From: a virus
Virus genome (UHGV): UHGV-0134932
DNA length: 49,858 bases
Reading direction: 5' to 3' (one strand)
Every line of letters starts with the position of its first letter. Position 1 is the first letter of the stretch. The notes beneath the pieces were generated by a model. That model was not told where the DNA came from, searched no databases, and saw nothing but the letters and a program-made list of their open reading frames with translations. Both the position numbers and the translations under genes were made by a program. This document shows positions 12,201 to 18,484 of the stretch, in pieces.

Positions 12201-12324
12201 CGCACCGACAATACCGCTTTTCCAAAAAGCTCTAATTAGGTCATTCGTTGCCTAATGTCCGAACTGCTAAAGCATCCAAGTTGCTGTAGAATCACCGCCA
12301 ATTACATAAGCCTGAAATAAGTGG

Positions 12325-13887
12325 ATGAAAATGACAAGTATTCAACAACGTGCAGAGCTTCATCGTCAAATCTGGCAAATTGCTAACGATGTCAGGGGTT
12401 CGGTCGATGGATGGGATTTTAAGCAATACGTTCTGGGCGCACTTTTCTACCGTTTTATCAGCGAAAATTTTTCCAGCTATATTGAAGCCGGTGATGACAG
12501 TATCTGTTATGCGAAACTGGATGACAGCGTAATTACTGATGACATTAAAGACGATGCCATCAAAACCAAAGGTTACTTCATCTACCCCAGTCAGCTTTTC
12601 TGCAACGTAGCGGCGAAAGCAAATACCAATGACAGACTGAATGCAGATTTAAACAGCATCTTCGTTGCTATCGAAAGTTCTGCTTACGGCTACCCTTCAG
12701 AAGCAGACATCAAAGGTTTGTTTGCTGATTTCGATACCACCAGTAACCGCCTGGGTAACACCGTTAAGGATAAAAATGCCCGTCTGGCTGCGGTTCTGAA
12801 AGGGGTTGAAGGGTTAAAACTTGGTGACTTCAACGAACATCAGATTGACCTGTTCGGTGATGCCTATGAGTTCCTGATTTCTAACTATGCGGCAAATGCC
12901 GGTAAGTCAGGCGGTGAGTTCTTTACACCGCAGCACGTCTCCAGGCTGATTGCACAACTGGCTATGCACGGGCAGACCAGCGTTAACAAAATCTACGACC
13001 CGGCAGCGGGTTCCGGCTCACTGTTGTTGCAGGCGAAAAAACAGTTTGATAACCATATCATCGAAGAAGGCTTTTTCGGTCAGGAAATCAACCATACGAC
13101 CTATAACCTGGCGCGTATGAACATGTTTTTGCACAATATCAACTACGACAAGTTTGATATCAAGCTGGGTAATACACTGACTGAGCCGCACTTCAGAGAT
13201 GAAAAACCGTTTGACGCCATCGTATCTAACCCACCGTATTCGGTGAAATGGATTGGCAGCGATGACCCGACGCTGATTAACGATGAGCGTTTTGCCCCGG
13301 CTGGCGTTCTGGCCCCCAAATCCAAAGCTGACTTTGCGTTTGTACTACATGCGCTGAACTATCTTTCGGCCAAAGGTCGTGCTGCGATTGTCTGCTTCCC
13401 GGGTATTTTTTACCGTGGCGGCGCAGAGCAGAAAATCCGTCAGTATCTGGTCGATAATAACTATGTCGAAACCGTAATTTCACTGGCACCGAACCTGTTC
13501 TTTGGCACCACCATTGCTGTAAACATTCTGGTGCTGTCTAAACATAAAACGGATACCAAAGTTCAGTTTATTGACGCCAGCGAACTGTTCAAAAAAGAGA
13601 CTAATAACAACATCCTGACCGATGCTCATATCGAACAGATTATGCAGGTATTTGCCGGCAAGGAAGATGTTGCTCATCTGGCGAAATCTGTCACGTTTGA
13701 GACTGTTGTCGCGAATGACTATAACCTGTCGGTGAGCAGCTATGTGGAAGCGAAAGATAACCGCGAAATAATCAATATTGCTGAGTTGAATGCAGAGCTG
13801 AAAACCACGGTCAGCAAAATCGACCAGTTGCGCAAAGATATTGATGCGATTGTGGCAGAAATCGAAGGCAGTGAGGCTCAGGAATGA
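12325..13887 (+). CDS. hsdM: Type I restriction-modification methyltransferase subunit HsdM (type IC-like)
   Basis: 520-aa protein with N6-adenine MTase motifs ([14 protein letters not shown]); overlaps hsdS start. Confidence 0.95.
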
Positions 13888-15167
13888 ACAAGCTAAGTTA
13901 TCTGGAAAAGTTGCTGGATGGGGTTGAGGTTGAGTGGTTGACTGCCGCTGAGATTTTCAACATTAAAAATGGCTATACGCCATCTAAAGCTAAAAAAGAA
14001 TTTTGGGAAGATGGGAATATCCCTTGGTTTAGGCTTGAGGATATACGAACTAATGGCAGAGAGCTTAATGATTCTATTATGCATGTGAATCAAGCAGGAG
14101 TTAAAGGCAACCTTTTTCCTAAAGATTCAATATTTATGTCAACGACGGCAACAATAGGAGAGTTTGCTTTGGTCAAAATACCACATTTGACCAATCAGCA
14201 AATTACCAATTTTTCATTAACTAGCAGATTTAAAGGAATTATAGATATAAGATATTTATTCCATAGATTCCATCACTTTGGGGAATGGTGCAAGGAAAAC
14301 GCTAACAAAAGTGGCGGTTTATCCATTATAGGAATAAAAAAATTATCATCGTATAAATTCCCAATTCCTTGCCCCGACAACCCGGAAAAGTCCCTTGCCA
14401 TCCAGTCTGAAATCGTTCGGATTCTGGATAAATTTACTGCACTTACCGCTGAGCTTACCGCTGAGCTTACCGCTGAGCTTAACATGCGTAAAAAACAGTA
14501 CAACTACTATCGTGACCAGTTGTTGAGTTTTGATGAGGAGCAGGAAAAACCTATTTATCTGGAAAAATTGCTGGATGGGGTTGAGGTTGAGTGGTTGCCA
14601 TTGGGGGAAGTCTCAGCCTTAAGAAGAGGCAGAGTTATGTCAAAGGGATATTTAACTGAAAATTTTGGCCCATATCCTGTCTATAGCTCTCAAACTGCAA
14701 ATAATGGGAAAATAGGTTCTATCAATACCTTCGATTTTGATGGCGAATATATAAGCTGGACAACAGATGGCGCAAATGCAGGCACTGTGTTCTATCGAAC
14801 AGGTAAATTTTCAATAACTAATGTTTGCGGCCTGATTACATTAAAAAATAAATACCCATTAATCTACAAATTTCTGTTTTACTGGCTAACAATAGAAGCC
14901 AAAAAACATGTTTACTCAGGAATGGGAAACCCCAAGTTAATGAGTCATCAGGTTGAAAATATACCTGTACCAGTCCCCTGCCCGGATAATCCGGAAAAAT
15001 CCCTTGCCATCCAGTCTGAAATCGTTCGGATTCTGGATAAATTCGACACCCTGACCAACTCCATCACCGAAGGTCTCCCGCGTGAAATCGAGTTGCGCCA
15101 GAAACAATACGAGTACTACCGTGATTTACTGTTCAGTTTCCCGAAACCTGAAGCTGTCAGTAATTAA
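13884..15167 (+). CDS. hsdS: Type I specificity subunit HsdS with duplicated conserved regions and a central TAEL x3 repeat
   Basis: Two target-recognition-domain-like halves each followed by [23 protein letters not shown]; central [12 protein letters not shown]. Confidence 0.92.
14445..14480 (+). repeat. Three perfect tandem copies of a 12-bp unit (accgctgagctt) encoding TAEL in the hsdS central conserved region
   Basis: Direct read of sequence. Confidence 0.95.
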
Positions 15168-18200: not shown

Positions 18201-18405
18201 AGAAAATCTCAATGAAGATGCAGCAAAACGCTATATTCGCACGTCTTTAAAACGCGAATACGCCACCGAAAATGGCACAGAATTAAACGAAACATTACCA
18301 AAACTTAGTCCGTTGAATCCGCAATATAAAACGAAAAAACAGGCAGTTTTCCAGAAAATCGTCTCGTTTATTGAGAAGTTTAAAGGCGTAGGCGGAAAAA
18401 TATAG
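15289..18405 (+). CDS. hsdR: Type I restriction endonuclease/translocase subunit HsdR
   Basis: 1038-aa protein with PD-(D/E)xK-like N-terminal region, SF2 helicase motifs (TGSGKT, DECH) and C-terminal helical domain. Confidence 0.95.
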
Positions 18406-18484
18406 CCCAATTCGTGTTTTTCTTGCGGGTTCTTAATTAAACCCGCAAGAGCTCGTGGGGTTCCAAATGGCTAATATACTCCCC

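Follow-up and report, generated by a model that had tools for sequence, protein, structure and literature searches.

The window analysed here, a whole metagenome contig of 49,858 nucleotides (UHGV-0134932), carries at about 12235-18480 an intact hsdMSR module of the type IC (EcoR124) family, recognised from its open reading frames and their profile matches and lying on the plus strand of a P1-like phage-plasmid. About 41 kb of the contig aligns to P1 at 94-99% identity and in P1 gene order, and this synteny, together with C1 operators at 9287, 18654, 20746 and 20795, places the backbone among the Punavirus elements. From left to right, the module and its immediate flanks comprise:

11234-11623, minus strand: humD (UmuD-like), left backbone flank (NF051876 HumD, 217.6 bits)
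11722-11973, minus strand: hot, DNA polymerase III theta homologue, left backbone flank (PF06440, 107.9 bits)
11976-12200, minus strand: orf74, 5'-truncated remnant of an 88-aa lipoprotein-like gene (orf88) of the D6-like phage-plasmid backbone
12226-12234, unstranded: left breakpoint zone, the 9-bp motif AAAnCTCTA
12235-12324, plus strand: hsdM upstream region, part of the module and conserved in all contexts compared
12325-13887, plus strand: hsdM, N6-adenine methyltransferase subunit, 520 aa (TIGR00497, 646 bits)
13884-15167, plus strand: hsdS, specificity subunit, 427 aa, with two Methylase_S domains (PF01420 twice)
14445-14480, plus strand: three exact 12-bp repeats, ACCGCTGAGCTT, within hsdS
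15168-15288, plus strand: hsdS-hsdR gap, 121 bp, non-coding by sequence
15289-18405, plus strand: hsdR, translocase/nuclease subunit, 1038 aa (TIGR00348, 758 bits)
18422-18449, unstranded: stable 10-bp GC-rich hairpin directly past the hsdR stop codon, found by sequence and folding
18481-18653, minus strand: retained P1 pmgT leader (P1 84482-84310), by P1 alignment
18654-18670, minus strand: C1 operator OpmgT, ATTGCTCTAATAAATAT, one mismatch to the consensus
18670-19176, minus strand: pap, a phosphatase gene, right backbone flank (PF25109; 98.6% identity to P1)

Composition and class of the hsd module

The trio of genes that makes up a type I system is present, namely HsdM, an HsdS with two target-recognition domains, and an HsdR that combines a nuclease with an SF2 translocase, and the order hsdM-hsdS-hsdR is that of type IC. 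Compared with the EcoR124 chains in the PDB, HsdM is 98.5% identical over its full length (8 of 519 residues differ), and both its AdoMet motif DPAAGSG225 and its NPPY302 motif are intact. HsdR is 97.9% identical to that of EcoR124I, also over its full length (22 of 1038 residues differ); it contains the HSDR_N, SWI2_SNF2 and T1R_D3 domains, matches EcoR124_C (PF12008) with 241.9 bits over residues 728-1031, and retains a complete set of catalytic motifs, D151/E165/K167 (D-ExK), Q179xxxY183, GSGKT310 (Walker A) and DECH408 (DExH). HsdS has the conserved regions of type IC. Type I families were defined through cross-hybridisation, antibody cross-reaction and subunit complementation; judged from its sequence, the module is genuinely of type IC, given the identity of HsdM and HsdR to the EcoR124 prototype and the presence of all catalytic motifs.

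These results bear out the core of what had been proposed in a sequence-only reading of the same DNA, which saw a complete type IC hsdMSR cassette carried as cargo in a P1-like backbone and oriented against its neighbours. The three open reading frames have the sizes given there, and the profile matches and the comparison of the subunits with EcoR124 agree with the assigned class. Non-P1 DNA lies between P1-matching flanks, and the neighbouring genes (doc, phd, humD, hot and orf74 on the left, pap and pmgS on the right) are all on the minus strand, opposite to hsd. The synteny comparison with P1 likewise leaves the cargo interpretation standing, canonical P1 lacking this hsd set at the locus, where blastn against P1 leaves an identity gap from 11964 to 18481.

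In the type IC family hsdR stands apart from hsdS and is transcribed from its own promoter. EcoPrrI-type loci carry prrC, an anticodon nuclease gene, inserted between hsdS and hsdR; this type of locus was considered and rejected for the window, in which the two genes are separated by the 121 bp of non-coding DNA only, with no prrC-like gene. The EcoPrrI-type locus is also known from the title of Tyndall et al. (1994).

EcoR124I and EcoR124II, encoded by R124 and R124/3, show the same gene order and the same HsdS conserved regions, including the 12-bp TAEL repeat, and the DNA just downstream of their hsdR is likewise derived from P1 (P1 84399-84482); they differ in replicon, EcoR124 residing on a conjugative IncF plasmid and the present module on a P1-like phage-plasmid. 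EcoPI, the type III res/mod system of canonical P1, is likewise a restriction-modification system of a P1-type prophage plasmid, but it is of another enzyme class, with other genes at another locus (P1 3.5-9.7 kb, by mat), assigned to variable region 1 of P1-like phage-plasmids (PMC9603915). The sequence-only reading would have type I stand in place of this type III system; on the left, the contig runs out within a Tn3-family transposon that interrupts ref, and the res/mod region of this element is therefore off the contig. The relative AP024695.1 is 100% identical at the left end of the contig and has no hsd genes in the slot, for which reason it is no stand-in for the res/mod region of the element.

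The specificity subunit

The only new element at this locus is the hsdS allele, of which no intact copy was found in the collections searched: no record in PLSDB or among complete E. coli genomes covers at least 80% of the gene. By alignment, the allele is a reassortment of two target-recognition domains that were already known. The N-terminal domain is 98% identical to that of a Klebsiella allele (NZ_CP055175) and the C-terminal domain 100% identical to that of an E. coli allele (NZ_AP027686), the former being known from Klebsiella plasmids and the latter from P1-like plasmids of E. coli, while the pairing of the two is absent from all records in PLSDB and the complete E. coli genomes. An exact-sequence look-up returned no match for either HsdS or HsdM in the protein collection, a result that is not counted as evidence of novelty. 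In the case of HsdM the miss is explained by the 518-aa start chosen by the gene caller; the 427-aa HsdS is called on the source contig.

The three 12-bp repeats encode three copies of TAEL (HsdS residues 188-199) in the central conserved region, the tandem repeat characteristic of type IC. It has been reported that the number of TAEL copies determines the length of the spacer in the target (PMC3874165). EcoR124I has two copies, whereas EcoR124II, EcoDXXI and EcoPrrI have three, as does the HsdS described here, so that a target of the layout 3-nt / N7 / 4-nt would be expected. Both target-recognition domains differ from those of EcoR124, the only resemblance of the N-terminal domain being a weak one to the C-terminal domain of EcoR124 (54 bits), and the recognition sequence is for this reason not GAA N6/7 RTCG. 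The target probably differs from that of both parent alleles, and the reassortment likely yields a recognition sequence not yet catalogued, a routine outcome. The practical interest of the allele is confined to predicting the methylation motifs and transfer barriers of the strains that carry it.

Junctions, distribution and origin of the module

The slot occupied by hsdMSR lies between the phd-doc/humD/hot side and the pap side of the backbone, and the module stands in place of the P1 genes pmgT-upfO, substituting about 2.1 kb. The edges predicted by the sequence-only reading, 12240 and 18480, proved nearly exact, with the left junction at about 12226-12235 and the right one at 18480/18481. 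On the left, identity to P1 (90% by blastn) stops at 11964, within the first codons of hot. Next to hot lies orf74, in which, according to alignment, translations, the members of the 88-aa cluster and the context in pKY1497_2, the start and first codons of orf88 were replaced at the hsd junction. The motif AAAnCTCTA is common to the orf88-type backbone, whose homology extends to about 12234, and to the hsd module in its phd context, whose homology begins at 12226; this 9-bp overlap at the join is possibly a coincidence. On the right, P1 identity resumes at 18481, which corresponds to P1 84482, the very position at which the P1 GenBank record ends its annotated homology with the sequences that follow hsd in EcoDXXI and R124/3 (misc_features 84263-84482 and 84399-84482 at the pmgT leader).

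The sequence-only reading had treated the arrangement as an open question, but enterobacterial type IC hsd genes at exactly this junction within P1 DNA were already published in 1997, and the P1 GenBank annotation notes the arrangement too. Type IC hsd loci flanked by P1 DNA are described by Tyndall et al. (1997). EcoDXXI, a type IC system with three TAEL repeats, has a right junction identical to that of the window, and the P1 misc_features assign to its locus P1 homology to phd-doc upstream (P1 87969-88647) and to the pmgT leader downstream (84263-84482). The left junction differs: in EcoDXXI, 673R5, phi456 and the IncF plasmids phd is followed directly by hsdM, whereas the window keeps humD, hot and the truncated orf88 in between. 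Thus humD, retained here, is missing wherever hsd has the phd-type context (673R5, phi456 and IncF plasmids), and relative to 673R5 the window has an extra 988 bp (11238-12225). Backbone, slot, orientation and right junction are as here in NZ_CP062902 (IncY), pPSS-10_1 (NZ_AP027686), CP100027, vB_EcoM-673R5 and phi456; the first two of these agree with the window in the left junction (hot-orf74-hsdM) and in the C-terminal recognition domain as well, and the N-terminal domain differs throughout the group.

In PLSDB, 262 plasmids have the junction between hsdR and P1 DNA and 261 the canonical pmgT junction; the former was also found in 224 of 5,426 complete E. coli genomes and in the phages 673R5 and phi456, and the hot-orf74-hsdM variant of the left junction in 63 PLSDB plasmids. 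Among sequenced P1-like plasmids the hsd arrangement is as common as the P1 gene set itself, and carries little weight as a discovery; the cassette is real but ordinary, having been published in 1997 and being present in hundreds of sequenced plasmids. What is added here are the exact breakpoints, the search for scars, the census, the IS-bounded fragments of IncF plasmids and the new combination of HsdS domains. The copies on IncF plasmids lie in a fragment derived from P1, with pdcA-doc-phd before hsdMSR and 84 bp after it, which IS26 and IS1 delimit; since P1 DNA remains on both sides, the direction of transfer for these copies was from P1-like elements to IncF. The region pmgT-humD has been described as variable region 8 of P1-like phage-plasmids (PMC9603915), and the suggestion that the locus is a hotspot for defence cargo holds as far as the documented variability is concerned; its defence part did not extend to other occupants, as neither the P1 pmgT set nor the 13-gene set that fills the slot in AP024695.1 (Pfam hits only to DUF551 and Ead/Ea22, none in PADLOC) matched a known defence model.

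Neither target-site duplications nor terminal repeats are present, a pattern that fits module exchange by recombination. Recombination between the conserved P1 flanks, and not transposition, would have brought the module in or swapped it, the left join being of the microhomology type; P1-like elements could be either the source of the module or its recipient. Taken jointly, we consider it very likely that a functional-looking type IC module, occupying a known variable slot and replacing pmgT-upfO, was exchanged in this manner. The GC content of the module (43.4%, against 48.2% in the remaining window), its sharp edges, its occurrence on several plasmid types and the IS26 and IS1 elements that bracket it on IncF plasmids would also suit a mobile island inserted by transposition or site-specific integration, with scars at about 12240 and 18480. 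Such target-site scars had been anticipated, and none beyond chance was detected: the right edge and the two candidate left edges have no direct or inverted repeat longer than 7 bp in common, a length reached or surpassed in 245 and 271 of 300 shuffles. A transposon or integrative island was rejected, there being no terminal inverted repeat, target duplication or recombinase at the edges and, in the P1 context, no transposase or integrase inside or beside the module. The replacement of the 2.1 kb of P1 genes denotes a substitution and not a simple insertion, the IS elements of IncF plasmids enclose the larger P1-derived fragment including phd-doc and not the hsd module itself, and two distinct left junctions accompany a single right one. 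An inserted island is in consequence largely refuted and, of all the readings considered, the least credible.

A smaller though appreciable probability is given to a history in which the enterobacterial type IC systems stem from the P1-like lineage, where hsd would be one long-standing allele of the slot and the gene set of canonical P1 the other, with no acquisition of hsd as cargo. Conjugative plasmids would in that case have obtained hsd from P1-like elements, a difference from recombinational exchange that concerns history and not function. The nearly equal frequencies of the two junctions in PLSDB speak for it, as do the pdcA-doc-phd retained on the left of the IncF copies and the 84 bp of pmgT leader on their right, and Tyndall et al. 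(1997) in both title and thesis. Against it, the lower GC and opposite orientation suggest that the module originated elsewhere than in the P1 backbone, and at the left join a backbone gene has been cut down from orf88 to orf74, the mark of a secondary event within this sub-lineage. Sets of hsdMSR with 83% identity are found without flanking P1 DNA in Klebsiella, on non-P1 plasmids and in a phage, and also in E. coli, on the chromosome. It might also be supposed that the cassette is a decaying, non-functional remnant, as copies in related records are disrupted by ISApl1, ISEc68 or IS3-family insertions, and hsdM and hsdR are annotated as frameshifted in 673R5 and hsdS as split in phi456. In the window, however, all three reading frames are full length, the ATGA coupling of hsdM and hsdS is intact, and every catalytic motif is kept in proteins 98% identical to a crystallised, active enzyme, which makes decay very improbable.

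Predicted function and expression

By analogy with the family, HsdM2-HsdS would methylate adenines within a bipartite target whose sequence depends on the two recognition domains of HsdS; joined by two HsdR subunits, it would translocate DNA at the expense of ATP and cleave incoming DNA that lacks the modification at a long distance from this target. A lysogen would in this way restrict foreign phage and plasmid DNA, the DNA of the element and of its progeny being protected by methylation. Type IC systems have been reported to establish themselves safely in new hosts through control of assembly and not through ClpXP (PMC12707154).

The overlap of hsdM and hsdS consists of ATGA, through which the two genes would be translationally coupled, and they are probably transcribed from a promoter internal to the module. 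The sequence-only reading had credited the cassette with its own promoter-like TAGAAT element. The hexamer is present at 12287-12292 as a candidate -10 in CTGCTA-17-TAGAAT, but the -35 is poor (3 of 6 consensus positions; 8 of 12 for the whole promoter) and the consensus promoter scan did not call the site. Across the region 13 promoter-like sites were found, with 14.2 expected in shuffled sequence, showing no enrichment; as a promoter of hsdM the TAGAAT candidate is plausible, though weak by consensus. A scan for a P1 late promoter of orf74-hot over 11960-12330 returned none; it recovered LPpac and others, but LPhot is atypically spaced, so that this negative is weak. A separate promoter within the 121-bp gap probably serves hsdR, and there TTAACA-18-TATTTT (15195-15224) is a candidate matching 9 of 12 consensus positions, such sites not being enriched over shuffles. 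Downstream, the hairpin at 18422-18449 has no T-run on either strand, and a stem-loop followed by a T-run at 18599-18631, within the pmgT leader, is the predicted terminator of the plus-strand (hsdR) transcript.

The promoter PpmgT, retained here without pmgT, points in antisense direction into the 3' end of hsdR, and between the two no intrinsic terminator was found that would stop transcripts running this way. It is conceivable, though improbable, that the orphan PpmgT fires upon inactivation of C1, and that convergent antisense transcription into hsdR then lowers restriction while modification continues during lytic growth. The type I system would then be linked to the lysis-lysogeny switch of the phage, and the effect would be general, since the junction is conserved in the 262 plasmids. 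The leader also holds a 28-aa hydrophobic open reading frame (18485-18571, minus strand), and in IncF-type plasmids its first 84 bp (18481-18564) alone are left beside hsdR.

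Type IC hsdMSR module and its place in the P1 backbone

Three open reading frames are present on the plus strand with exactly the coordinates and sizes assigned to them from sequence alone, and their Pfam/NCBIfam matches are as follows:

12325-13887, plus strand: hsdM, 520 aa; TIGR00497, 646 bits
13884-15167, plus strand: hsdS, 427 aa; two Methylase_S domains
15289-18405, plus strand: hsdR, 1038 aa; TIGR00348, 758 bits

An ATGA overlap joins hsdM and hsdS, 121 bp separate hsdS from hsdR, and no prrC-type insertion is found in the module, whose GC content is 43.4% (39.6% in hsdS) against 48.2% for the rest of the window. 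HsdR contains HSDR_N, SWI2_SNF2, T1R_D3 and EcoR124_C domains. When subunit identities were measured against solved structures, 8 of 519 aligned HsdM residues were found to differ from the EcoR124 M subunit, and 22 of 1038 HsdR residues from EcoR124I HsdR (2w00); the likeness of HsdS to EcoR124 HsdS is limited to the conserved central and C-terminal regions. The catalytic motif sets are complete in both HsdM (DPAAGSG, NPPY) and HsdR (D151/E165/K167, Q179xxxY183, GSGKT310, DECH408). The central region of HsdS harbors a 12-bp repeat, ACCGCTGAGCTT, in three exact copies (14445-14480) that encode TAEL x3. In type IC systems the number of TAEL repeats fixes the spacer, two copies giving N6 in EcoR124I, and three copies are known from EcoR124II (N7), EcoDXXI and EcoPrrI (PMC3874165). 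Since family profiles, near-identity to EcoR124 subunits, catalytic motifs and the triple TAEL repeat all agree, the set belongs, by every feature testable in silico, to the type IC family, and is complete as the sequence-only reading had it.

The module is oriented opposite to its neighbors, as had also been described: these are P1 genes, all on the minus strand, namely lpa, pdcB, doc, phd, humD (NF051876) and hot (DNA polymerase III theta) to the left, and pap and pmgS to the right. In a blastn comparison with the whole P1 genome the window is collinear in reverse orientation at 94-99% identity, which stops at 11964 (P1 86588), within the first codons of hot, and resumes at 18481 (P1 84482). 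Because identity breaks over this interval, where P1 holds pmgT, pmgU, pmgV, upfM, upfN and upfO, canonical P1 does not carry these hsd genes at the locus.

Type IC hsd loci flanked by P1 DNA were reportedly described by Tyndall et al. in 1997 (cited in PMC12707154). The P1 GenBank record itself carries misc_features by which 84263-84482 matches the downstream side of the EcoDXXI hsd locus at 96% identity, 84399-84482 the DNA that follows hsdR on R124/3 at 98%, and 87969-88647 (phd-doc) the upstream side of the EcoDXXI locus at 98%; the right junction of the window lies at the coordinate where the first two features end (84482), 5 nt ahead of the pmgT start codon. Two deposited phages, vB_EcoM-673R5 and phi456, carry hsd in the same slot, which is variable region 8 of P1-like phage-plasmids (PMC9603915). 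The module matched 1,176 PLSDB plasmids, 637 of them over at least 80% of its length. A 300-bp probe spanning the hsdR-P1 right junction, counted at a coverage of at least 80%, was found in 262 PLSDB plasmids and in 224 of 5,426 complete E. coli genomes, and an equivalent probe for the canonical P1 pmgT junction in 261 plasmids. About 260 more plasmids, mostly conjugative or mobilizable, have only the first 84 bp of the P1 flank (an estimate from evenly spaced match rows). On the IncF plasmid pCTXM15_005784 the order is IS26-pdcA-doc-phd-hsdM-hsdS-hsdR-84 bp-IS1, and this copy is a piece of a P1-like element with an IS at each end. The module is thus real and intact, an EcoR124-family type IC system in variable region 8, and the finding, although correct, was already known, the arrangement being published, annotated in the P1 reference genome and very common.

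Junctions, route of arrival and slot occupants

Two types of left junction exist. In 673R5, phi456 and the IncF plasmids hsdM directly follows phd, the module beginning at the equivalent of window position 12226, and the P1 record features imply the same junction for EcoDXXI. The other type, which keeps humD, hot and a 74-aa ORF, is that of the window and of 63 PLSDB plasmids, among them NZ_CP062902 and NZ_AP027686. This ORF (within 11976-12242, minus strand) is a 5'-truncated version of an 88-aa lipoprotein-like gene that is intact beside hot in D6-like phage-plasmids, reading MLHRVLWKSVIVGAMLAMSGC... in pKY1497_2. Backbone homology stops near 12234, which removes the start codon; the first codons and ATG are replaced at the hsd junction and the frame is open upstream, without a canonical start, so that the ORF is probably dead or dependent on an unusual start. 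Because lxr, a LexA-regulated gene that P1 has between humD and hot, is missing at 11673-11736, and because identity to P1 is only 94% in humD and 90% in hot but 98-99% in DNA right of the module, the left side appears to come from a different P1-like lineage.

Backbone and module homology tracts overlap by 9 bp (AAAnCTCTA, 12226-12234). Target-site scars, suggested as a check at about 12240 and 18480, were not seen, no direct or inverted repeats beyond chance linking the module edges, and no recombinase gene is present at the module. Arrival by transposition does not suit this pattern, which fits replacement of the module by recombination in conserved flanks, with a left join of illegitimate or microhomology type. 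The proposed defence-cargo hotspot is supported only in part: the slot is indeed a known variable region, but no known defence model matched its alternative occupants, the P1 pmgT set and, between hot and pap in the related AP024695.1, a third type (32768-39507, about 6.7 kb) of 13 small minus-strand genes, with DUF551 and Ead/Ea22-like proteins among their products.

A recombinant hsdS allele

At a DNA coverage of at least 80%, hsdS was not found in any PLSDB plasmid or complete E. coli genome. Its N-terminal recognition domain shares 98% identity with the allele of Klebsiella plasmid NZ_CP055175 and, to judge by this match, is drawn from the Klebsiella allele pool; the C-terminal one is 100% identical to the E. 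coli pPSS-10_1 allele. The gene is therefore a product of domain reassortment via the central conserved region, a classic event in type IC systems. Of the whole locus, only this allele was new to the collections searched, and it is a routine addition to a known type. The exact 427-aa protein was not found in a 15-billion-protein collection, though the contig index does list the source contig, on which a 427-aa gene is called at that position; this probably reflects an indexing gap and not novelty. Klebsiella IncFIB/HI1B plasmids and Klebsiella phage vB_KpnS_p4727 (PQ492289) carry hsdMSR about 83% identical and without P1 flanks, and in NZ_CP055175 (2372-10569) a DUF262-domain gene directly upstream of hsdM suggests a small defence cluster.

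Expression signals and other variable segments

The TAGAAT hexamer read as promoter-like is present (12287-12292), inside a stretch that accompanies the module in every context, but a promoter scan did not call the site because its best -35 matches 3/6. Between hsdS and hsdR, a candidate promoter at 15195-15224 matches the consensus at 9/12 positions. The hsdR gene is followed by a stable hairpin that lacks a T-run (18422-18449) and then, in the retained P1 DNA, by a stem-loop with T-run (18599-18631) that would terminate a plus-strand transcript. The C1 operator OpmgT is kept at 18654-18670; its promoter is directed antisense into hsdR and has a 28-aa hydrophobic ORF as its only remaining gene, and any regulatory consequence for hsdR is improbable and purely speculative. 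This strongly hydrophobic ORF (MNTAFKIIMAAIYFWLFSITFGGIVAHG; 18485-18571, minus strand), in the pmgT leader, has a Shine-Dalgarno-like sequence and lies almost wholly inside the 84-bp P1 remnant attached to hsdR on IncF plasmids; P1 has the same DNA with no CDS annotated there.

The window is the complete contig ERZ1744269 NODE_97, and positions 1-125 hold the terminal part of a Tn3-family transposon (last 93 nt of the transposase gene plus terminal repeat) inserted in ref (126-710) at P1 position 2583. Since the contig ends within this transposon, the res/mod region lies off it. AP024695.1 matches window 1-2700 at 100% identity, and a class 1 integron (dfrA12, aadA2, cmlA1, aadA1, qacL, sul3, mef(B)) lies in its transposon; for this reason the window element probably carries resistance genes too, the assembly having broken in the repeat. 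Between c1 and pacB a 1.7-kb segment (4278-6002) is not collinear with P1 and shares 64-82% identity with the P1 ant region, located elsewhere in P1; the genes here are:

3427-4278: c1, P7-type C1 repressor family
4311-5423, minus strand: ORF6N/ANT antirepressor-like protein, 370 aa
5420-5641, minus strand: 73-aa ORF
5697-6011, plus strand: 104-aa ORF

A short stretch without P1 identity (32276-32865), corresponding to P1 70107-70688 on the upl/tciA side, falls in a variable region listed for P1-like phage-plasmids (PMC9603915).
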